DNA of 47,464 nucleotides from Candidatus Parcubacteria bacterium. GTDB lineage: Bacteria; Patescibacteriota; Patescibacteriia; UBA9934; GWF2-40-263. The position numbers were made by a program, and so were the translations under genes. The stretch covers positions 1 to 47,464 of the forward strand of contig VGKU01000001.1 of NCBI GenBank assembly GCA_016882235.1. Direction: 5' to 3'. Shown one piece after another: positions 1,929 through 41,736 of the stretch. A model generated the notes under the pieces. That model saw nothing but the letters and a program-made list of their open reading frames with translations. It had not been told where the DNA came from and ran no database searches. The number at the start of each line of letters is the position of its first letter. The stretch's first letter is position 1.

Positions 1929-1939
1929 GTGTGTATCCT

Positions 1940-3481
1940 ATGTTTCCCTTGTTCGCGATTCCTCTTATCGGCGAGGCTGTCACACAGACCCCGGCAGCTG
2001 TTTCTTATTTTGACCGTCCCATTGACGTGATGTTATTTGATGCCTTCGTTTGGTTCGGATGGATTCCGATTGTCACGACAGTGATTTGGGGAATCGTCAT
2101 CATGTGGCAAAACTACCGTGTCGGTCTGTATGTGTCCGGCTACAAATGGGTTGTGCTGGCGATTGATGTGCCGGCCATGACCGAGCAGACTCCCAAGGCT
2201 CTGGAAAACCTGTTCGCGACAATCTACGGCGCGAAATCCTCGCTCACCTGGAAAGAGCAGTGGGTCGTCGGAAAGGTCCAGCCCACATTTTCGTTTGAGA
2301 TCATCTCTACCGAAGGGTACATCCAATTTTTGGTGCGTACGCAAACGCGCTTTCGCGACAATATTGAGGCGGGTATTTACGCCCATTATCCTGACGCGGA
2401 AATTACGGAGGTGGAAGATTACGTCAAATATTTTCCCAGCAATTTTCCCGATGAAGAATACGATATGTGGGGAGGAGAATTTGTATTGGATAAGCCGGAA
2501 ATCTATCCGATCCGCACCTATGTGGATTTTGAAGACCGTCTGACGGGTGAAATCAAGGATCCACTCGGCCATACGCTTGAACAGTTGGCAAAGATGCGTC
2601 CGGGCGAACATTTTTGGATTCAATTTATCGTCCAGCCGCAAAGCAATGACTGGATGCAAGCGGGCGTGAACAAATTGAACGCTTTGTACGGGAAAAAAGC
2701 AAAGGTCAAGAAGAGTCCCATCATGAGCGCATTGGAATCCGTACTGGCCTGGCCCGTGGGAATGCTGGAGAATGTGACTGGCGCGGACCTGTCGTTTTTG
2801 TTCGGCGGCGCGGCAGAAGAAAAGAAAGAGCCCATGGTGTTTTTGCCTCTGCAAGAAACGAAAGAGGCGGAAGCCATTTATCACAAGATTGGCAAAGTGG
2901 GACTGTTGACCAAGATTCGTATCGTGTACATTGGCCGGAAAAACGTCTTTGTCAAAGTGGAACGCACAACAATGGTCAAAGGGATTCTGAACCAGTATAC
3001 GAATTTGACCCTCAACAAGTTTGCGTTGTTCATTCCACAAGTGCCTAAAGACGATTATTTTTGGATGCGTTGGGTGTATACAAAAAAGCAAAGGAACCTG
3101 ATGAACGGATACAAAACTCGCAACTGGGGGATCGGCGCCGATCCGTTTTATCTGAATGTGGAAGAGTTGGCGTCGTTATGGCATTTCCCGACGATCGGAT
3201 TCAAGCCGCCTCTGGTAAAGAAGGCCGAAGCGCGTCGCGCCGAACCGCCGGTCGGCCTGCCAATCACCCACGAAGAAATCACGTTTCCCGGTCTCACGGC
3301 CGAGCCGGAACTCCCGATTATGCCGTCGGAAGGATCGCCAGAAGCACCGGTTGCCCCTGAAGGGGAAACAAGCCCTGTGCCCGCCGATACGCTTTCCACG
3401 GCCGAGGTGCCGCGCGTAGAACCTCCGACCAAGCCGAAAGAGGATACGGACTCCTATGTCCCCCCCAATTTGCCGATGTAG
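1940..3481 (+). CDS. Hypothetical membrane-anchored protein, partner of the downstream VirD4/TraD-like ATPase
   Basis: 516-aa ORF (GTG 1931; first ATG 1940). It has N-terminal hydrophobic helices (FPLFAIPLIGEAV; VWFGWIPIVTTVIWGIVIMW; YKWVVLAIDV), a large soluble body and a Pro/Glu-rich tail. I recognise no family. Confidence 0.6.
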   Translation: MFPLFAIPLIGEAVTQTPAAVSYFDRPIDVMLFDAFVWFGWIPIVTTVIWGIVIMWQNYRVGLYVSGYKWVVLAIDVPAMTEQTPKALENLFATIYGAKSSLTWKEQWVVGKVQPTFSFEIISTEGYIQFLVRTQTRFRDNIEAGIYAHYPDAEITEVEDYVKYFPSNFPDEEYDMWGGEFVLDKPEIYPIRTYVDFEDRLTGEIKDPLGHTLEQLAKMRPGEHFWIQFIVQPQSNDWMQAGVNKLNALYGKKAKVKKSPIMSALESVLAWPVGMLENVTGADLSFLFGGAAEEKKEPMVFLPLQETKEAEAIYHKIGKVGLLTKIRIVYIGRKNVFVKVERTTMVKGILNQYTNLTLNKFALFIPQVPKDDYFWMRWVYTKKQRNLMNGYKTRNWGIGADPFYLNVEELASLWHFPTIGFKPPLVKKAEARRAEPPVGLPITHEEITFPGLTAEPELPIMPSEGSPEAPVAPEGETSPVPADTLSTAEVPRVEPPTKPKEDTDSYVPPNLPM

Positions 3482-3508
3482 GAGATAAGGTCTGATCCAG
3501 GAATTGCT

Positions 3509-5428
3509 ATGTCCAATCATCACGACCACGAACAAGAAGTGACGTATTTTGCGAAAACCAATTTTCGCAACTCCATGGTGAAGTTTGGGATCAAGACGGA
3601 TGACCGCCGGCGCCATGTCTACGTCATTGGGAAAACCGGCATGGGCAAAACCACCTTGCTGGAAAATTTTATTTTGTCCGATATCTACGCCGGCCATGGG
3701 TGTTGTTACGTGGATCCACACGGCGATACGGCCGAGAAGTTGGTTGATTACATTCCGTCCTGGCGCATTAACGACGTGGTCTACTTCAACCCGGCGGACA
3801 TGGATTTTCCGATCGGTTTTAACATCCTGGAGGCCGTGAGCGAACGGCATAAGCATCTGGTTGCAAGCGGGATGATGGGTGTCTTTAAGAAGATTTGGGA
3901 GAACATGTGGTCCTCGCGCATGGAGTACATTTTGAACAACACGATTTTGGCCCTGTTGGACAATCCCGGGCAGACACTCCTTGGTATCAACCGAATGCTT
4001 TCGGAGCAGGATTTCCGCAACCGCATGGTCGGCAATGTACGGGATCCGGTCGTCAAACAGTTTTGGCTGAAGGAGTTCGCCTCGTACAATGATAAATATG
4101 CGCAGGAAGCTGTTGCGCCGATCCAGAACAAGATCGGCCAGTTCCTGTCCGCGTCGGTCATTCGCAATATGGTGGCGCAGGTCAAATCCACCATCCATAT
4201 CCGCAACATCATGGACGAGGGAAAGATCTTTATCATCAACCTTTCCAAAGGTCGTATTGGCGAGGATAATTCGCGCTTGCTCGGCGGTCTTCTCATTACC
4301 AAATTACAGCTTTCCGCGATGGAACGCGTGGACATTCCCGAATCTGAACGCAAGGATTTTTACTTGTATGTGGACGAGTTCCAAAACTTCGCTGTGGAAT
4401 CGTTCGCAGGCATTTTGTCGGAAGCGCGTAAATACCGTTTGTGTTTGACCATGGCGCACCAGTACATCGCCCAGCTGACGGACGAGGTGCGCGAGGCGGT
4501 CTTCGGCAACGTCGGGACGCTCATCACCTACCGCGTTGGGTCGCCTGATGCGCTGTACATGGAGAAAGAGTTTACGCCGCGGTTTTTGCCGGAGGACATC
4601 ATCAATCTACCCAAGTTTAACGTCTATCTGAAATTATTGATTGATGGGGTGACGAGTCAGCCGTTTTCTGCGATCACTCTGCCGCCCATTTCCCAACGGA
4701 CGGAATCGGCAGAGCGCGTGATCCGTGTGTCGCGCGAGCGGTACGCGAATCCGCGTGCGGATATTGAGCAGAAGATTTTGGCGTGGAGCGGGATGGAGGA
4801 AGCGGATATGGACACACTGCTCGCTCAGGCGGCGGAGAAAAAGAAAGCGGCAAAGGCGGCAAAGAAGCCGAAGTTTGAGTACAACTGTACGCGCTGTAAC
4901 AAGGAGATGGTTTTGCCGGTCGAGCTGGACCGGTCGCGGCCGATTTATTGCGAAGAGTGCATTGAGATCGTGCGGGAAGAGCGCAAACACGGAAAAGGAA
5001 AAAAGCCAGAAGGGGGTGGCCGTGGACTCCCGCCAGCGCGAGAAGGGAATACGGAGGAAAAAAGTCGGGGTTCCCAGACTCCACCGGCAAAGACGCGCAC
5101 AGAGATAGTAGAGCGTCCGGTTGCAGAGAAGCCGGTCTCGCTTCAAACGCTGAAGCCCAAACCAGCCCTTCCCAGTAACCCTCCTGAAGGCGTGGGAGGT
5201 GATGGACCTCAAGATGTACCTGCGGCGCACACGGATTCTCGTCCGCGCCAAGAAGATGAACACATGCAGAAAAAGCGAAAACGGAACAGGAAGCGGAAAC
5301 CGAAAACGGAAGCGACGGCGCCACCAAAACCGGAACCGATCGCGCCATCCAAGCCATCTGTGCCTCCGCAAACGCCCAAGCAGACCTCTGGAACGTTGCG
5401 TCCTGGCCAATCCATTACCTTTGACTAG
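3509..5428 (+). CDS. VirD4/TraD/TraG-like (type IV coupling protein family) P-loop ATPase with C-terminal zinc ribbon and basic low-complexity tail
   Basis: Walker A GKTGMGKTT, DPHGD and Walker B FYLYVDEFQNF are present, followed by SEARKYRLCLTMAHQYIAQL...GNVGTLITYRVG. A CxxC-x17-CxxC motif sits at aa 460-484. The tail contains KKRKRNRKRKPK and PPKPEP repeats. There is no N-terminal TM helix. Confidence 0.8.
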   Translation: MSNHHDHEQEVTYFAKTNFRNSMVKFGIKTDDRRRHVYVIGKTGMGKTTLLENFILSDIYAGHGCCYVDPHGDTAEKLVDYIPSWRINDVVYFNPADMDFPIGFNILEAVSERHKHLVASGMMGVFKKIWENMWSSRMEYILNNTILALLDNPGQTLLGINRMLSEQDFRNRMVGNVRDPVVKQFWLKEFASYNDKYAQEAVAPIQNKIGQFLSASVIRNMVAQVKSTIHIRNIMDEGKIFIINLSKGRIGEDNSRLLGGLLITKLQLSAMERVDIPESERKDFYLYVDEFQNFAVESFAGILSEARKYRLCLTMAHQYIAQLTDEVREAVFGNVGTLITYRVGSPDALYMEKEFTPRFLPEDIINLPKFNVYLKLLIDGVTSQPFSAITLPPISQRTESAERVIRVSRERYANPRADIEQKILAWSGMEEADMDTLLAQAAEKKKAAKAAKKPKFEYNCTRCNKEMVLPVELDRSRPIYCEECIEIVREERKHGKGKKPEGGGRGLPPAREGNTEEKSRGSQTPPAKTRTEIVERPVAEKPVSLQTLKPKPALPSNPPEGVGGDGPQDVPAAHTDSRPRQEDEHMQKKRKRNRKRKPKTEATAPPKPEPIAPSKPSVPPQTPKQTSGTLRPGQSITFD

Positions 5429-6210: not shown

Positions 6211-7527
6211 ATGGCCGAGTACGAACTCCGCGACCCCATCCACCAGCGCATCACGTTTAGCGCGTTTGAGCGTTCCATCATTGATCACCCGTTTCTCCAA
6301 CGGCTTCGTTTTATTTCCCAGCTTGGGTTCATCCAATCCTCTGTGTATCCTGGCGCGGTGCATGATCGGTTTGCCCACGCGATCGGCGCCATGCATGTCG
6401 CCGGACGATTGTTCCAGCATATGATCGGATGTTCCGGGTATTTCCGCGAGCGGCTGACACCGCAAGAACGCGAGGCGCTTGCCTCGCGCGTCCGTCTGGC
6501 CGGACTCCTCCATGATCTGGGACATGGGCCGTTTTCCCACGCTTCCGAGTCGGTTTTTCCGCCGCTCGCGACGTTGCCGCTTGATTGGTCGTGGTGGAAA
6601 ACGAGAACCGATCGCCAGGCGATCCATGAGGATTACAGCGTCCTGCTTATTCAAACACTTGCGCGCGAAGGTCTCTTTGACGAGATGTTCGCGCAGGATC
6701 TCTGTGCGCTCATCCACACGGATGTCCGTCCGTCGCCTTCGTTTGTTTCCCTTGCTGAAACGTCGCCTGGTCTCAAACCCGTGCTCAAGGGGATGATCTC
6801 CGGGGAGGTGGACGCGGACCGGATGGATTACCTGCTCCGCGATAGCTATTACTGCGGAGTCGCGTACGGCCAGTATGATTTAGATTGGCTCATCAGTGCG
6901 CTTTCGGTTGCCGAGCATGACGGGCGGCTTATCGTCGCCCTATCTGAAAACGGTGTACGCGCGTACGAGGATTTCTTGCTCGCCCGTTACCACATGATTG
7001 ACCAAGTGTATTACCACAAAACAAAGGCGGGGTTTGCGCATTACCTTGAGGAGGCCATTCGTCAAAACGAGATTGATTTGACGATCCCGACGGATCCGTA
7101 TGCCTACGCGCAGTTACGCGACGGGGCCGTGATCGAGCGGTTGTTTGAGGCCGCGCGTGACCCCGCGAACTACTGGGCTTCACATTTGATTCGGCGCGTT
7201 CCGGCCAAACGGATTTTACGCCTCCATGCCGACCATCCGGATGATGCACAGACGCTCGAGCGGCTGAAGGCCTTTTGCGATGAACAGCGTCTTGGCTGGT
7301 TTGTGCATGCCGTTTCCAATCAGCTGACCAACTTTGACCAAGGCGAGAGTGAACGCGCGACCATGCTGTACGTCTGCAAACAGCGGGTCCATGGGGTTGA
7401 ATATGTACCGATTTTCCAGTATTCTGATCTGCTCCAAACCTATAACAAAAAACTGCGTTTTACTGATTTTTTTGTCCTGCGCGAGGACGCTCACAGGTTT
7501 GAGACCGTCAAACACTTATTTTCCTAG
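6211..7527 (+). CDS. HD-domain phosphohydrolase, SAMHD1/EF1143-like dNTP triphosphohydrolase family
   Basis: The N-terminus DPIHQRITFSAFERSIIDHPFLQRLRFISQLG...VYPGAVHDRFAHAIGAMHV matches the family. HDLGHGPFSH and DADRMDYLLRD are present. An SD-like GGTGAG lies upstream. Confidence 0.75.
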   Translation: MAEYELRDPIHQRITFSAFERSIIDHPFLQRLRFISQLGFIQSSVYPGAVHDRFAHAIGAMHVAGRLFQHMIGCSGYFRERLTPQEREALASRVRLAGLLHDLGHGPFSHASESVFPPLATLPLDWSWWKTRTDRQAIHEDYSVLLIQTLAREGLFDEMFAQDLCALIHTDVRPSPSFVSLAETSPGLKPVLKGMISGEVDADRMDYLLRDSYYCGVAYGQYDLDWLISALSVAEHDGRLIVALSENGVRAYEDFLLARYHMIDQVYYHKTKAGFAHYLEEAIRQNEIDLTIPTDPYAYAQLRDGAVIERLFEAARDPANYWASHLIRRVPAKRILRLHADHPDDAQTLERLKAFCDEQRLGWFVHAVSNQLTNFDQGESERATMLYVCKQRVHGVEYVPIFQYSDLLQTYNKKLRFTDFFVLREDAHRFETVKHLFS

Positions 7528-7538
7528 CTTTTTACCAC

Positions 7539-7598
7539 TGGGGTCAGGTCGTTACTTGTCGCATGGGAGAGCATGCGACAAGTAACGACCTGACCCCA
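7539..7598. repeat. Perfect 27-bp inverted repeat (hairpin, 6-nt loop GGAGAG) between the HD gene and mnmA
   Basis: 7539-7565 (TGGGGTCAGGTCGTTACTTGTCGCATG) is the exact reverse complement of 7572-7598. No U-tract follows. Confidence 0.85.
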
Positions 7599-7606
7599 CT
7601 TACAAC

Positions 7607-8647
7607 ATGGCAAGAAAAGTGCTTCTGGGAATGTCTGGAGGGGTGGACTCAAGTGTGTCCGCCGCTTTGTTGTTGGAACAGGGATACGAAGTGGTTGGGG
7701 CGTTTATGAAAAACTGGTCGAATTGCCAGTGGCGGGCAGACAAACGCGATGCCGCCCGCGTGGCCGCACAGCTTGGGATCCCGTTTGTCACGCTGGATTT
7801 TGAGCAACAGTACCGCGAGGATGTCGTTGAATATTTGTTTCGCGAAACCGAGGCTGGTCGCACACCTAATCCGGATGTCATGTGCAACAAGTTCATTAAG
7901 TTCAACCGATTTGTGCGCGCGGCGGACGAATGGCAGTGCGATCTGATCGCGACCGGGCATTATGCGCAAATCAAGGAATCCCTGTTGCACAAAGCGACGG
8001 ATCCTAATAAGGATCAGACCTACTTTCTCTGGGCGATCAATCCGTCTGTGCTCTCTCGCGTCTTGTTTCCGATCGGCCATCTCACCAAGCCGGACGTGCG
8101 CGCAAAAGCCCGCGCGCTGTGTCTTCCGGTCGCCGACAAAAAGGATTCAACCGGTATCTGTTTTGTGGGCGAAGTCTCAATGCCGGATTTCCTGCGTCCG
8201 CGCATCCCCGAGCGCGCTGGCGATGTCCTGACGACAGAGGGCGCGTGTGTGGGGAGCCACAGAGGCGTTCACTTCTATACCATCGGCCAGCGTCACGGCC
8301 TTGGGATCGGCGGAGGCACGCCCTATTACGTCGTGGAAAAGCGGGCACAGTCAAATGAGTTGATCGTTTCTAGTAATTACCATCCGCGCTTGTACGCGCA
8401 GACACTGTCCGCTTCTTCGGTGAATCTGTTTTGTCCGCGCGAGCAGCTTGACGCGCCGCTTGCCTGTACCGCACGGATCCGTCACCGTCAGCCACTTCAA
8501 TCCTGCACGGCCGTCATCCACGGCGACACCCTTCACGTCCAATTTGAAAAGCCCCAGCGCGCGGTGACGCCCGGACAATCCGTTGTGTTGTATTTGGGTG
8601 AAGCCGTCCTTGGGGGCGGCATCATTTCGGAGGCAGGACAGCATTGA
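7607..8647 (+). CDS. mnmA: tRNA 2-thiouridine(34) synthase
   Basis: The PP-loop LGMSGGVDSSV is present, and the N-terminal and central regions are MnmA-like (MCNKFIKF, GHYA). Confidence 0.92.
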   Translation: MARKVLLGMSGGVDSSVSAALLLEQGYEVVGAFMKNWSNCQWRADKRDAARVAAQLGIPFVTLDFEQQYREDVVEYLFRETEAGRTPNPDVMCNKFIKFNRFVRAADEWQCDLIATGHYAQIKESLLHKATDPNKDQTYFLWAINPSVLSRVLFPIGHLTKPDVRAKARALCLPVADKKDSTGICFVGEVSMPDFLRPRIPERAGDVLTTEGACVGSHRGVHFYTIGQRHGLGIGGGTPYYVVEKRAQSNELIVSSNYHPRLYAQTLSASSVNLFCPREQLDAPLACTARIRHRQPLQSCTAVIHGDTLHVQFEKPQRAVTPGQSVVLYLGEAVLGGGIISEAGQH

Positions 8648-37663: not shown

Positions 37664-39075
37664 AAACCCGTTTTCCGCCATCGCCCACGGGGTTCCTGCA
37701 CATCGGATCCCTACGTACGGCGTTATACAACTACTACTTCGCCCGCAAGCACGGGGGCGCGTTCGTCTTGCGCATTGAGGACACGGACCGCTCGCGCTAT
37801 GTGGAGGGGGCGGTGGAGTCGCTTCTGCGTACGCTCAAACGGATGGAGATTGATGTGGATGAGGGACCATTCGTTCAGTCGGAGCGTCTGGAGATCTACC
37901 GCGCACACGCACAACAACTGGTGCAAGCCGGCCACGCGTATAGATGTTTTTGTTCCAAAGAACGTTTGGAGGAGTTGCGCGCGGTCCAACAGACCGCCAA
38001 ACAGCCGACAAAATACGATCGCGCGTGTTTGACATTAGCGACGGATGAGGTAGAGGCACGGATCGCGCGCGGAGATGCCTCGGTCGTGCGTATGCGCATA
38101 CCGGAAGGCGAAACGTCTTTTGAAGACGAGGTGCGCGGACGGGTGACTATCCAGAATAAAGAACTGGACGACCAAGTGCTTCTCAAAGCCGACGGGTTTC
38201 CGACGTATCACCTCGCCGTCGTTGTGGACGATCATTTGATGGGAATAACGCACGTCATTCGCGGCGAAGAATGGATCTCCTCGGTCCCCAAGCATATCTT
38301 ACTGTACCAATGGTTTGGTTTCCCGTTGCCGGTTTTTGCGCATCTGCCCCTGATTCTCAATCCCGACCGCTCCAAACTGTCCAAGCGCCAGGGTGATGTT
38401 TCTGTGGAGGACTATTTTGAAAAGGGCTTTCTGGAAGAAGCGCTTGGCAACTATGTCTCCTTGCTCGGATTCAATCCGGGAGGCGATCGTGAGATCTATT
38501 CCCGCGAGGAGCTGATTGCAGCGTTTGACCTCAAAAAACTCAATAAGAGTGGAGCCGTCTTTGATGTCAACAAGCTCCTGTGGATGAACGGACAGTACCT
38601 CAAAAACCTTCCGGCCGACGAGTTGGCCTTGCGTGTGCGGCCCTGGCTTGAACACGGGGCAGGGGACGTGCCAGAACAGCTTCTTCAAAAGGTCTGTGAT
38701 GTAGAAAAAACGCGTATGTCCTTGTTGTCTGACATCCGCAACATCATCCCCATGTACCTTCATCAACCAGATATTTCCCCAGATTTGCTCGTCTGGAAAA
38801 CAGCAGACAGGGAAGATGCCCTGTTACAGCTCAAGGGGGTGCGCGAACGAATGGATGCCTGTGATGACAAAACGTTTTCAACACCCGGACTGGTGGAAGA
38901 AACGCTGAAACGGTATATTGAAGAGAGGAATCTCGGGACCGGCAATGTGCTGTGGCCCCTGCGCGTTGCGCTTTCGGGCGCCAAACGCTCACCCGGACCA
39001 CATGAACTTGCCTGGGTCTTGGGAAAGGAGGAAACGATTCGCCGCATTGATCATGCGACTTCGCTACTTGCTTAG
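37651..39075 (+). CDS. gltX: Glutamate--tRNA ligase
   Basis: RFPPSPTGFLHIGSLRTALYNY (HIGH motif) and KLSKRQG (KMSKS motif) are present. Confidence 0.93.
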   Translation: MDKIKTRFPPSPTGFLHIGSLRTALYNYYFARKHGGAFVLRIEDTDRSRYVEGAVESLLRTLKRMEIDVDEGPFVQSERLEIYRAHAQQLVQAGHAYRCFCSKERLEELRAVQQTAKQPTKYDRACLTLATDEVEARIARGDASVVRMRIPEGETSFEDEVRGRVTIQNKELDDQVLLKADGFPTYHLAVVVDDHLMGITHVIRGEEWISSVPKHILLYQWFGFPLPVFAHLPLILNPDRSKLSKRQGDVSVEDYFEKGFLEEALGNYVSLLGFNPGGDREIYSREELIAAFDLKKLNKSGAVFDVNKLLWMNGQYLKNLPADELALRVRPWLEHGAGDVPEQLLQKVCDVEKTRMSLLSDIRNIIPMYLHQPDISPDLLVWKTADREDALLQLKGVRERMDACDDKTFSTPGLVEETLKRYIEERNLGTGNVLWPLRVALSGAKRSPGPHELAWVLGKEETIRRIDHATSLLA

Positions 39076-40237
39076 CGCGATTCTCATAAGCGCATCCCTG
39101 TTTGCGGGAGGCGTCTTTGCGATGGCGCAAGAAGATGTGGGTGTTCTTAACCGCCAGATCGCGGAACGCAAAGGGAGCATTGAACAGATTAACAAGCGCA
39201 TCGGCGAATACCAGAAAAAAATTGAGGCGGTCCAGCGCGAAAAAGCGAGCCTCCAAGTTGAGTTGGAACTGTTGGACAATCGGATTGCGAAAACCGAATT
39301 GGAAATCACAGAAACCAAAGAACAGATCGGGCTCATCAATACGGAACTCTCGCTCCTGCAAAAACAGCTCATGCAACTGCAGAGGAATCTGGAAGAGCAT
39401 AAACGGTTGATGATGGGCGTGCTCCAAAAAATTCAAACAAAAGATCAAAACTTGGCCATTGAAGCGCTCTTTGGATCCAAATCGCTCTCCGAACTGTTTG
39501 ATGAAGTCCAGTCGCTTGAGACCATCAACGCTGACCTGAAAGACGCGCTGGAGAAGACCAAACGAGCCAAGGCGGCTGTAGAGGAAAAACAAGAAATTCA
39601 GGAAGGAAAAAAGAAAACCATGGAAGAGTTGGAGGGTGCGCTCGCGGCGGAAAAGACGCGGCTGGAGGAAGAAATCGGCGCGCAGAGTCTGCTGGTGGCG
39701 CAGACACAGCGTTCAGAGGATGCGTTTCGGACACTGGTTCGCGAATTACGGGAAGAACAATCGTTCATCAACAACCAGATTTCTGCGCTCCAACAGCGCC
39801 TGGAAGACCGACTGATCGCCAATGATCAAGCCGGGGATGTCTCCGCGCTTTCCTGGCCGATTGACCCGTCTGCGCGTGGGATTTCTTCCGGTTTTCATGA
39901 TCCAACCTACCCATTTCGGCGCCTATTTGAGCACTCCGGCGTGGACTTGCCGGCTCCGACCGGTACACCGATTCGTGCCGCCGCTTCCGGATATGTAGCC
40001 TGGGCGAGGAAGGGAAGACAGTACGGCAATTATGTGATGGTGATCCACGCCAACGGACTCGCGACGCTGTATGCGCACATGTCGCGTGTGGATGTGACAG
40101 CGGATCAGTTCGTACAACGCGGAAGCGTGATTGGAGCGGTGGGGAACACCGGGCTTTCTACCGGTCCGCATGTGCACTTTGAAGTGCGTAAAAACGGCAT
40201 TCCAGTCAATCCAATAAACTACCTGACATCTCGATAG
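39053..40237 (+). CDS. EnvC-like coiled-coil M23 metallopeptidase
   Basis: The internal ATG at 39053 gives the signal/TM MRLRYLLSAILISASLFAGGVFA. A long coiled coil follows. The M23 motifs HSGVD and GPHVHFE are present. Confidence 0.85.
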   Translation: MRLRYLLSAILISASLFAGGVFAMAQEDVGVLNRQIAERKGSIEQINKRIGEYQKKIEAVQREKASLQVELELLDNRIAKTELEITETKEQIGLINTELSLLQKQLMQLQRNLEEHKRLMMGVLQKIQTKDQNLAIEALFGSKSLSELFDEVQSLETINADLKDALEKTKRAKAAVEEKQEIQEGKKKTMEELEGALAAEKTRLEEEIGAQSLLVAQTQRSEDAFRTLVRELREEQSFINNQISALQQRLEDRLIANDQAGDVSALSWPIDPSARGISSGFHDPTYPFRRLFEHSGVDLPAPTGTPIRAAASGYVAWARKGRQYGNYVMVIHANGLATLYAHMSRVDVTADQFVQRGSVIGAVGNTGLSTGPHVHFEVRKNGIPVNPINYLTSR

Positions 40238-40245
40238 CGTCCTGT

Positions 40246-40458
40246 ATGACTCTTGAACTGGCGTTCTTCGTTCTCGGATGGATCTTCGTTGGTATTCCCA
40301 CCGTCATTTTTTTGGGCGTCAGCTTTTCTATGATCAAGGGAGCTGCCACAGACGATGAAACCGTTAAGGCGCTTGTACTCCTCAGCCTGACCTCCTTTTT
40401 CATGGGTGCGATCATTCTCCTTGTCCTCTACCTCACAAACTTATTTGAACGATTTTGA
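40246..40458 (+). CDS. Small hypothetical two-TM membrane protein (70 aa)
   Basis: Two clear hydrophobic helices are present. The ATG lies 8 nt after the M23 stop. No homology is recognised. Confidence 0.45.
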   Translation: MTLELAFFVLGWIFVGIPTVIFLGVSFSMIKGAATDDETVKALVLLSLTSFFMGAIILLVLYLTNLFERF

Positions 40459-40459
40459 G

Positions 40460-40800
40460 GCGTCGCACAATAAATGTTATACGACACATAAGAAATGGCG
40501 AAAGCCATTTCTTATGTGTCGTATAACATGGCGCACATTGTAAGACGCTGATACAAACCTCTGCTAGCGTCACACAATGTGCTTGGAACTCATCATAACT
40601 GCGCTAGCCGTTTCTCATGTGTCGTATAACATAGCGCACATTGTAAGACACTGATACAAGCCTCTGCTAGCGTCCTACAATGTGCTTGGAATTCACTTTA
40701 GCGCATAACGTACAATGAACTCACAGCGACGGCTAGCGCCGCTGTAAGACATCCATCTAAGCATCTGCTAGCGTCGTACACCGTGCGTGGTTCTTTCCCG
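40460..40800 (+). repeat. Degenerate ~103-nt tandem units (about 3.3 copies) with conserved internal hairpins; candidate structured ncRNA or binding-site array
   Basis: The anchor motif GCGTCnnACA recurs at 40460, 40567, 40670 and 40771. Copies 40508-40593 and 40611-40697 are roughly 90 percent identical. Hairpins lie at 40533-40582 and 40636-40685. GCTAGC occurs five times. Confidence 0.7.
40474..40529 (+). repeat. Perfect 26-bp hairpin with GAAA tetraloop
   Basis: 40474-40499 (ATGTTATACGACACATAAGAAATGGC) is the exact reverse complement of 40504-40529. The loop is GAAA. Confidence 0.88.
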
Positions 40801-40804
40801 GATG

Positions 40805-40888
40805 TCTCTGTGTTCTCTTCTCTCCTCTCTTCAACCCTCTCCCCCATTTACATTTTACGACGCCACAGTTTTTCTCCTTTCTTTTTTC
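40805..40888 (+). repeat. Polypyrimidine (plus strand) / polypurine (minus strand) tracts
   Basis: 40813-40845 has only two purines in 33 nt (TTCTCTTCTCTCCTCTCTTCAACCCTCTCCCCC). 40869-40888 is all pyrimidine. Confidence 0.75.
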
Positions 40889-40914: not shown

Positions 40915-41736
40915 CTATTTGAAATAGACATGATCGCCAAATCGCAAATCAATGTACTCCAGCTTGCTTCGATCTGGGGATTTTTCACGCAGGACTGTCT
41001 CCAGACGCGCGGCTTGAAGATCAACATCTGTTGAGGCATCAAATAGAATGCGATAGCCGTCGGAGGTGACCACACCGATCCACTTGCCTGCCAGGCGATC
41101 AAATTCCGTCTGAACAAACGTAATGCTTTGGGCCCCAAGGTGTTCATGGAAACGGAACACAGCCTCCGTTTCTTCACGCGTCAGGACAATGTCCCCTACC
41201 GCGACGGAAACAGCATTTCGGTCCACGAACAGTGGCAGAATCGCTGAGAGATGTTCCAACTCGTCTGCGGCATCTAACAGTCGGATCACCACGCCCTCCA
41301 GATCTACGACGGCCGTCTGGGAGCCCGTCTTCCAAATAAGCTGAGATGTGCGCTCCACGAGTCGCATCTCAACCAGTCTTCCCTGTTGAACGATTTGCAA
41401 ATCGCGAAAGGCAAACGTGCTGTTGAGTTTCGTAGCAAAGGCGCCAGGATCAAACAAAAACCGGTTTTTGCGCAGATCTCGATGAATGGCCTGAACGAGC
41501 TGGACGCGATCCAAATGTTTCACCCCGACGATATGCACGCGTGTGATGTTGAAAAAGGGATGCAGGAAGAAAAACGCAGAGATGGCCGAAATGACACCAC
41601 AGATGGCAAGGGCTATCCAGAGCGATCGCGAAAATGCCGTGGATGTATCGGCTCGAAAATACGGGTTGCGATACGTCCGCTCCTCGTATTTTTTTTGCTG
41701 GCTGCGTTGAAAAAAGTCCCGCTTGCGCATAGGCAA
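40915..41736 (-). CDS. ftsQ: Cell division protein FtsQ/DivIB (POTRA domain)
   Basis: A basic N-terminus is followed by a single TM (LWIALAICGVISAISAFFFL). A POTRA-like ITRVHIVGVKHLDRVQLVQAI follows. It lies next to alr in a cell-wall gene context. Confidence 0.72.
   Translation of the reverse strand: MPMRKRDFFQRSQQKKYEERTYRNPYFRADTSTAFSRSLWIALAICGVISAISAFFFLHPFFNITRVHIVGVKHLDRVQLVQAIHRDLRKNRFLFDPGAFATKLNSTFAFRDLQIVQQGRLVEMRLVERTSQLIWKTGSQTAVVDLEGVVIRLLDAADELEHLSAILPLFVDRNAVSVAVGDIVLTREETEAVFRFHEHLGAQSITFVQTEFDRLAGKWIGVVTSDGYRILFDASTDVDLQAARLETVLREKSPDRSKLEYIDLRFGDHVYFK

Follow-up and report, generated by a model that had tools for sequence, protein, structure and literature searches.

Two inverted arms around a 6-bp centre, an arrangement written 11-6-11, are the anatomy of simple tyrosine recombinase sites such as dif and loxP. 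The dif site of Escherichia coli has the sequence GGTGCGCATAA TGTATA TTATGTTAAAT (PMC3025954), and the in silico criteria applied to archaeal dif are an 11-6-11 structure, conservation, and a noncoding location; inverted repeats on the flanks of dif are noted in the same paper (PMC2958812). In a 47,464-nt stretch of DNA from a Candidatus Parcubacteria bacterium (contig VGKU01000001.1; the whole stretch is referred to below as the window), a 28-bp imperfect palindrome of this anatomy was found at positions 40460 to 40487 on the plus strand. The palindrome, here called the core site (site I), lies in a 456-nt noncoding gap between the stop codons of a 70-aa open reading frame (ORF) (40458) and a minus-strand FtsQ-like ORF (40915), two convergent stops that had already been recognized in a preliminary description of this DNA. 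Around the core site, further copies of the same half-site form a repeat array with several hairpins. The array is probably a set of protein-binding DNA half-sites. Judging from sequence comparisons, the core site is tentatively interpreted as the core of an Xer/Cre-type recombinase target, a candidate dif that stands amid duplicated half-sites.

The core site and described recombination sites

The building block of the array is the 12-nt half-site GYGTCNYAYAAY. A position weight matrix (PWM) built from its copies gave 11 matches between 40460 and 40863, on both strands, and 8 weaker matches scattered over the other 47 kb. The core site has the sequence GCGTCGCACAA-TAAATG-TTATACGACAC, in which two 11-bp inverted arms (consensus, GYGTCGYAYAA) flank the 6-bp centre, and it can also be described as a head-to-head pair of 12-mers with a 4-nt gap (12-4-12). 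The window contains one copy, even when 3 mismatches are allowed, with 0 expected by chance, and each of the 110 fetched loci that have the site likewise carries it once. An anchor motif, GCGTCnnACA, had been recorded earlier at 40460, 40567, 40670, and 40771, and it is present at all four positions. The motif corresponds to one orientation of the half-site, and the arms of the hairpins correspond to the other. Its first occurrence, which the preliminary description knew only as an anchor, is half of the conserved 28-bp palindrome.

Like chromosomal dif sites, the core site is 28 bp long with the 11-6-11 arrangement, noncoding, conserved among relatives, and unique in the sequence examined, and it has the properties by which dif is predicted in archaea. 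In a position-by-position comparison, 16 of its 28 positions are identical to those of E. coli dif, and the site of phage contig L029 is identical to E. coli dif at 17 of 19 positions over the inner arms and the centre. The inner arms of E. coli dif are matched by those of the core site (...CGCAYAA/TTATR...). In addition, the arms are nearly palindromic, as they are in the XerA and XerH sites. Among chromosomal dif sites, the closest counterparts are those of single-recombinase systems (archaeal XerA/dif, XerH/difH, and XerS/difSL). To our knowledge, the outer arms (GYGTCG) are unlike those of every described dif, and we know of no described dif that is surrounded by about nine extra half-sites, including a 103-nt tandem duplication.

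The loxP/Cre system of phage P1 offers a second close comparison. When the 9 arm positions bordering the crossover region were compared on each side of loxP in the P1 sequence, which was checked, 7 and 8 of them agreed with the core site, and the inner arms of loxP, TCGTATA(A/G)-N6-TTATACGA, are nearly identical to those described here. loxP is located 1.6 kb from the terminase genes pacA and pacB, so that it stands beside packaging genes, as do the phage copies of the present site. However, the arms of loxP are 13 bp long with other outer bases, cre adjoins loxP whereas most phage loci here are without a recombinase within 7 kb, and the present site is also found in a host chromosome. A further resemblance is to telRL of N15 (U63086.1, positions 35 to 90; sequence checked), which shares CACAAT, TTATACG, CGTATAA, ATTGT, and GCTGATA with 40460-40555 in the same order. 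The spacings between these words differ by 1 to 4 nt, however, the centres of the host sites are not palindromic, the flanks do not fold back, and host and phage contigs read through the site. A protelomerase tel site was rejected on the same grounds, the flanks of 92 phage sites being no more alike as inverted repeats (27% identity) than random sequence. With its 12-4-12 and 12-9-12 pairs, 40460-40548 also has the look of a serine resolvase res site, in which a 12-4-12 site I is combined with accessory dimer sites of other spacings beside a resolvase gene, and the half-site recalls TGTCYNNTA. Comparisons with cer and gamma-delta res are not used as evidence here, and no resolvase gene was seen.

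Conservation in relatives and in phages

The NCBI record of the FtsQ-like protein is named Candidatus Parcubacteria bacterium, and relatives of the protein are mostly named Candidatus Uhrbacteria. On the basis of these names, the host is taken to be a bacterium of the candidate phyla radiation (CPR; Patescibacteria) with an Uhrbacteria-like genome. The order of the M23 peptidase gene, the 70-aa gene, the convergent ftsQ, and alr is kept in eight lineages, with FtsQ identities ranging from 42% to 100%. All eight lineages keep GYGTCGYACAA-(6)-TTATRCGACRC in the same gap. A search for conserved neighbouring genes at other occurrences had been suggested in the preliminary description, and the 70-aa gene and ftsQ indeed flank the site in each of these lineages. 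The gap varies from 30 to 465 nt in length, and its noncoding DNA beyond the site cannot be aligned. In L013, the entire gap is 30 nt, which is the core site alone between two stop codons. The centre of the site is TAAATG, TAAATC, or TAAACC in six of the eight lineages, TGGATG in L018, and TATACC in L161. A lone half-site, ATTTTACGACRCC, is kept in most lineages at a distance of 130 to 400 nt from the core site (the block is kept in L012, L014, L018, L019, L020, and L022). In L013 and L019, the module is reversed relative to the flanking genes as compared with the other lineages.

Unrelated palindromic insertions occupy the same gap in two lineages. In L018, a 22-nt inverted repeat, TTTCATAATGTGATGACTATAG, at about 4145-4176 and 3835-3860 brackets the whole module, and L022 has two CCCAGGGATAACCCTGGG-type palindromes at about 1500-1545 and 1300-1330.

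The site is also present in phages. A scan of IMG/VR for the core arms with a free centre retrieved 36 contigs, and a reversed control pattern retrieved 0. A relaxed scan, in which both arm variants and gaps of 3 to 9 nt were allowed, matched at least 120 contigs; among the matches listed, the arm gap was 6 nt in 56 of the 101 newly found loci, and each other gap accounted for at most 13. The 92 IMG/VR phage contigs that were fetched contain one site each, and 43 of these sites are located within 1 kb of a contig end. In the 32 phage contigs examined, the site is always upstream of terL, in several of them between terS and terL, and the neighbouring genes encode large terminases of two unrelated families (phrog_2 and phrog_38), diverse small subunits, portals, and capsids. 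Individual host and phage sites are closely matched, phage L054 with host L161 at 26 of 28 positions and phage L057 with host L013 at 27 of 28. The shared site suggests that the hosts of these phage contigs are CPR bacteria, and its presence in more than 90 phage contigs, together with the host-phage pairs matching at 26 and 27 of 28 positions, offers a new sequence-based link between uncultured phages and CPR hosts.

One phage contig of 133 kb (L095) contains an XerS-like tyrosine recombinase gene at 6868-7905, the start of which is 55 nt from the site at 7960-7983 (TAGTCGCATAA-TTACAA-TTATACGACTA). The gene also adjoins the site in the xerS-difSL system of streptococci. Xer-like genes are found 0.25 to 2.7 kb from the site in a few other phage contigs, and no Cre-like protein was found by phmmer among 1,686 phage ORFs.

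Palindromes with GTCGYAYAA arms also fall into distinct groups with gaps of 4, 5, 8, or 9 nt, each conserved within itself, e.g., TAGTCGTATAAATTATTTATACGACTA and AGGTCGTATAATGCCACGCATTATACGACAC. Loci with gaps other than 6 nt include L062, L065, L075, L082, L090, L092, L099, and L121, several of these contigs being longer than 100 kb, and some gap-7 and gap-8 loci (L145, L093, L140, and L081) have a tyrosine recombinase gene 0.25 to 2 kb off. In addition, many phage sites (e.g., those of L031, L042, L050, and L055) have ccccc or ggggg runs within about 40 nt before the site, which is unusual at a G+C content of about 40%.

A covariation test of the stems had been proposed in the preliminary description. 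On the core palindrome, pairing equalled the expectation under independence. Among 83 unique gap-6 sites, positions 7 and 22 were Watson-Crick in 45 sites, compared with 42 expected, and positions 9 and 20 in 50, compared with 44 expected, and C.A combinations were common. The two arms vary independently, and the conservation of their sequence without selected pairing is the signature of a protein that reads two half-sites. For the hairpins A and B described below, the covariation data came from only two to three lineages.

Duplicated half-sites and structural variation

In order along the plus strand, the gap contains the core pair (40460-40487), an inverted copy of its right arm within palindrome A, a pair with a 9-nt gap (40516-40548), the tail-to-tail pairs B1, B2, and B3, and a lone half-site (40852-40863). 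Palindrome (hairpin) A, which is absent from the preliminary description, spans 40474-40529 and has perfect 26-bp arms (40474-40499 and 40504-40529; pair I2) around a GAAA loop. Its 5' arm and the right arm of the core site overlap, and its 3' arm holds the half-site GTGTCGTATAAC (40516-40527). An inverted paralogue of the core site with the arrangement 12-9-12 follows on the minus strand at 40516-40548, GTGTCGTATAAC-ATGGCGCAC-ATTGTAAGACGC, with PWM matches starting at 40516 (plus strand) and 40537 (minus strand). Hairpins B1 (40533-40582) and B2 (40636-40685) were found where they had been placed earlier, and both have 17-nt arms that are 88% complementary (40533-40549 and 40566-40582, pair I4, in B1; 40636-40652 and 40669-40685, pair I5, in B2). 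B1 consists of two half-sites tail to tail (40537-40548, minus strand, and 40567-40578, plus strand; PWM scores of 17.2 and 14.1), and its 16-nt loop holds GCTAGC. The half-sites of B2 as located by the PWM are 40640-40651 (minus strand) and 40670-40681 (plus strand), and another at 40619-40630 (plus strand) precedes the hairpin. The third, diverged copy suspected in the preliminary description is a degenerate B unit (B3) of 48 nt at 40743-40790 (79%; family D2), with half-sites at 40741-40752 on the minus strand (PWM score of 11.3) and 40771-40782 on the plus strand (15.2). The lone half-site (PWM score of 15.8) belongs to a block on the minus strand at 40852-40868, ATTTTACGACGCCACAG (pair I6), which is oriented like the right arm of the core site and is complementary to 40459-40471, so that it could form the outer stem of the predicted fold.

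The degenerate tandem array of about 103 nt that had been reported was also detected by Tandem Repeats Finder (40503-40695; period of 103, 1.9 copies, 91% matches, and score of 330), and no other array in the window comes near it in strength. The two copies, at 40498-40592 and 40601-40695 on the plus strand (family D1), are 95 nt each and 89% alike, and each is composed of the 3' arm of A, hairpin B, and a tail. The inverted pair said to bracket the second unit is 100% complementary (GCGCTAGCCGT at 40601-40611 and ACGGCTAGCGC at 40729-40739). The number of GCTAGC palindromes given earlier, five, was correct (5 of the 7 copies in the window lie within 40563-40772), but two of their coordinates were off by one. 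Mismatches between copies 1 and 2 involve all four bases. A template repeat/variable repeat pair of a diversity-generating retroelement was rejected, the mismatches not being adenine specific and the window containing no reverse transcriptase.

A 50-nt polypyrimidine tract (40800-40850; TGTTCTCTTCTCTCCTCTCTTCAACCCTCTCCCCC) is located between B3 and the lone half-site; on the ftsQ-sense strand, it is purine rich, with GGAG-like words. A 49-aa ORF on the minus strand (40698-40847) begins in this tract, and its 3' part lies within the strain-variable segment that is replaced in L003.

Palindrome A and the 12-9-12 pair are both present in L014, where the pair is GTCTCGCATAAC-ATTAAAAAC-ATTTCGCGACAC, and of these two elements L018 has palindrome A only. 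In L014 and L018, the base of the A stem is conserved, and its distal part differs yet remains paired. The 103-nt repeat, found in the window's species only and absent from relatives, arose by a recent tandem duplication, specific to this species, in a block already made of duplicated half-sites.

A look-up of the 70-aa protein gave four near-identical contigs, two of which have the same gap as the window. One of these two, L001, shows a copy conversion, its first B copy having the sequence of the second. In L003 and L005, a segment of 170 nt (40585-40754) is replaced by 383 nt with a DUF4440 gene, the flanks being 100% identical by blastn, and the breakpoints in the comparison with L003 are 40584/40585 and 40754/40755. 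The left breakpoint is 1 nt past the arm plus 6 nt of B1. The swapped-in segment (L003, 4291-4673) encodes a 120-aa DUF4440 (NTF2-like) protein and has a G+C content of 40%, compared with 54 to 55% for the genome, and the gene looks horizontally acquired. Homologues of about 80% identity in L010 and L011 are located in unrelated contexts with different flanks, and no cassette ends common to these homologues and the gene at the window locus were found. Contig L004, which belongs to the same strain group as L003, stops ahead of the swapped segment, and L004 and L012 both terminate inside the gap. The copy conversion in L001, the DUF4440 swap, and the two contigs ending in the gap indicate that the array is a hotspot of structural variation. 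As for the 103-nt repeat, its conversion in L001, its replacement in L003 and L005, and its absence in all other lineages show it to be unstable.

Similar variation is found in the arrays of integrative mobile elements exploiting Xer (IMEX) at dif and in the plasmid dif (pdif) modules of Acinetobacter plasmids, which likewise have full and degenerate sites beside the core and short, strain-variable gene modules (the DUF4440 swap in the present case), with one junction at an arm-plus-centre boundary. However, the units described here are about 100 nt long and mostly gene free, most of the extra copies are single arms or have a nonstandard spacer, only one of the two junctions of the swap coincides with a site, and no integrated phage was seen. 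The repetitive extragenic palindromes (REP) and bacterial interspersed mosaic elements (BIME) of enterobacteria are likewise imperfect palindromes that alternate in orientation, occur in tandem between convergent genes, and vary in copy number among strains. In contrast to REP families, which are dispersed in hundreds of copies, the present motif occupies one locus per genome fragment and is common to phages.

Recombinase reading, rival explanations, and gene context

The core site has the 11-6-11 anatomy of simple Xer/Cre-type tyrosine recombinase targets and is proposed as a chromosomal dif-like site of this lineage. A recombinase encoded elsewhere would bind one monomer per core arm and would exchange strands across the 6-bp centre, and phages with the site beside their terminase genes could have their genomes resolved, circularized, or integrated by the same host enzyme. 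Local duplication would have generated the extra arm copies, which are the repeats seen in the preliminary description. An inverted copy of the right arm would have given rise to palindrome A, alongside an inverted paralogue of the whole core with a 9-nt spacer, and arm pairs placed tail to tail would have given rise to the B hairpins, one block then being tandemly duplicated (103 nt) in the window's species only. The extra half-sites may act in binding, as accessory sites or decoys, or they may simply be by-products of the recombination and slippage to which such a palindrome-rich region is prone. We lean towards regarding the tandem copy as a by-product and towards a possible function for palindrome A and the 12-9-12 elements that are common to L014. 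A more far-reaching scenario, which is speculative and on the whole rather doubtful, is that the 28-bp palindrome is the unrecognized dif site of Uhrbacteria-like CPR bacteria with a single Xer-type recombinase, that many diverse CPR phages carry the site beside terminase genes so that the host enzyme circularizes, resolves, or integrates their genomes, and that the array, the 103-nt duplication, and the DUF4440 swap are traces of small cassettes gained and lost through the action of Xer.

Several observations weigh against a recombinase target. Both core arms are XerC-like, the right arm, TTATRCGACRC, being the inverted left arm, and the XerD-type arm of canonical XerCD dif (TTATGTTAAAT in E. 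coli) is absent. The site is therefore not a canonical XerCD dif and is at most like the sites of single-recombinase systems. GC skew and third-codon-position skew are flat in the window, with no terminus position visible, and the site is located at a convergent gene junction. No recombinase gene was found in the 47-kb window or within 10 kb of the site in the relatives. Around the phage sites, recombinase genes were also rare, with no enrichment (of the 123 mid-sized ORFs within 7 kb, 3 were of this kind), so the adjacency in L095 is anecdotal. Palindromes with the same arms and gaps of 5, 7, 8, or 9 nt also occur in phages, and a site related to packaging would be just as consistent with the clustering of the phage sites near contig ends and terminase genes. 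In the array, the centres of the B-type sites are TGTGCT, unrelated to that of the core, and the right breakpoint of the swap is within the hairpin loop of B3, away from any site centre. Structural variation was counted on the other side, namely, the left junction of the swap at an arm-plus-centre boundary, the copy conversion in L001, and the module inversion in L013 and L019.

For the uncultured CPR bacteria, in which next to no chromosome-maintenance sites have been described, a candidate dif with a defined sequence is a directly testable handle on chromosome maintenance and, if the interpretation is correct, would mark the replication terminus in draft CPR genomes. The phage copies suggest that tailed phages may borrow a host recombinase. 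In addition, the tandem repeat offers a modest lesson, namely, that local repeat arrays resembling structured RNAs can originate from palindromic sites bound by protein.

The half-sites could instead be read by another sequence-specific DNA-binding protein, as an operator array, as the sites of a terminus- or nucleoid-organizing protein, or as those of a host factor used by phages near their packaging genes. Independent variation of the arms at a fixed spacing, conservation of the core in both hosts and phages, and the scarcity of recombinase genes near most loci would all suit such a protein, as would the 3' half of the motif, which resembles a -10 box (TAYAAT); a promoter scan of the gap gave nothing above chance. 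This explanation is nevertheless unlikely, since the site in L013 fills the 30-nt gap between two stop codons and leaves no room for a promoter, each replicon fragment has one site where regulons usually have several, and the 11-6-11 geometry with ...YAYAA/TTRTR... inner arms is that of dif and loxP. A packaging or genome-end signal of phages (pac- or cos-like and recognized by terminase), from which the chromosomal copy and its repeats would be derived or with which they would have hitch-hiked, would account for the constant position upstream of terL, often between terS and terL, and for the many phage sites close to contig ends. Against it, the same arms accompany two unrelated large-terminase families and diverse small subunits, the host copy is conserved in eight lineages in a gap between housekeeping genes with no phage genes within 10 to 40 kb, and a chromosomal site that terminase could cleave should be counterselected, all of which makes it very improbable that packaging explains the locus.

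The preliminary description had left a choice among a multihairpin noncoding RNA (ncRNA), an array of protein-binding sites, and decaying copies of a small palindromic mobile element. A site array for a DNA-binding protein is favoured here, as a short half-site is used in either direction, distant relatives and phages keep the sequence of its paired form and not just the pairing, and the arms vary independently. An element acting at the RNA level, whether as 3' untranslated region structures, as bidirectional terminators or stabilizers of the convergent genes, or as a structured ncRNA in the ftsQ sense, is suggested by the folding of the gap, which is far stronger than that of shuffled sequences for either strand (z scores of -8.4 for plus and -7.7 for minus), and by four terminator-like hairpins, compared with 0.8 expected. 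The distal A stem stays paired while differing among the window, L014, and L018, hairpin B' of L014 has A- and T-runs on either side, and B1 and B2 pair slightly better on the minus (ftsQ-sense) strand, where B2 forms 17 continuous pairs including two G.U pairs, a hint in favour of an ncRNA. However, no Rfam family matched at the gathering threshold, a permissive threshold giving only weak microRNA precursor models that reflect a long hairpin. The core is conserved without covariation of its pairs and with common C.A mismatches, it has no U-tract on either strand, the perfect Watson-Crick palindromes of the long stems are what duplication of DNA would give, and in phages the site lies between the cotranscribed terS and terL, where a terminator would be harmful. 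An RNA-level element is thus quite improbable as the main explanation, and the flanking hairpins may have a secondary RNA role. A general terminator motif was rejected, the motif occurring once per locus. A mobile element, either a miniature inverted-repeat transposable element (MITE), a REP/BIME-like element, or IS200-type hairpins, or else integron-like cassettes with attC-like B hairpins and DUF4440 as the cassette, would fit hairpin units between convergent genes, the strain differences, the promoterless low-GC gene flanked by B-like hairpins in one strain, and the unrelated palindromic insertions in the gaps of L018 and L022. This is highly improbable, and a dispersed MITE or REP family was rejected: when the gap was compared with the window by BLAST, no further copy turned up, and the B unit gave only the same locus and one coding chance match in the metagenome collection, three single matches in unrelated phyla among species genomes (about 30 being expected by chance, as an estimate), and 0 matches in viral contigs. 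The DUF4440 relatives with different flanks elsewhere also argue against a cassette, and an integron attC array (a cluster of attC sites lacking integron-integrases) was rejected on inspection of 40459-40800, where RYYYAAC/GTTRRRY boxes are absent and the hairpin ends, GTT...AAC, are in the opposite order; no integrase or transposase is present in the window.

The left neighbour of the gap is the 70-aa predicted membrane protein gene (40246-40458, plus strand), taken from the ORF list and without a Pfam match, which is convergent with ftsQ. The right neighbour is an FtsQ/DivIB-like gene (40915-41736, minus strand; PF03799). The genes of the window are all housekeeping genes, including those for SecDF, MurJ, ribosomal proteins, aminoacyl-tRNA synthetases, ClpB, an M23 peptidase, FtsQ, Alr, and a penicillin-binding protein. 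Genes for a recombinase or a transposase and genes of phages are absent, and a scan for tRNA and transfer-messenger RNA gave no match. At 1931-5428, among housekeeping genes, a 516-aa ORF with no counterpart in Pfam stands ahead of the gene for a 639-aa protein, which has the DNA-binding domain of TrwB/type IV coupling proteins. Read from a TTG start, the M23 peptidase ORF of greatest length (38918-40237; 439 aa) has 158 nt in common with the GluRS gene. The M23 peptidase calls on sister contigs begin later and give proteins of 371 or 394 aa, which indicates that the true start of the gene is probably downstream.

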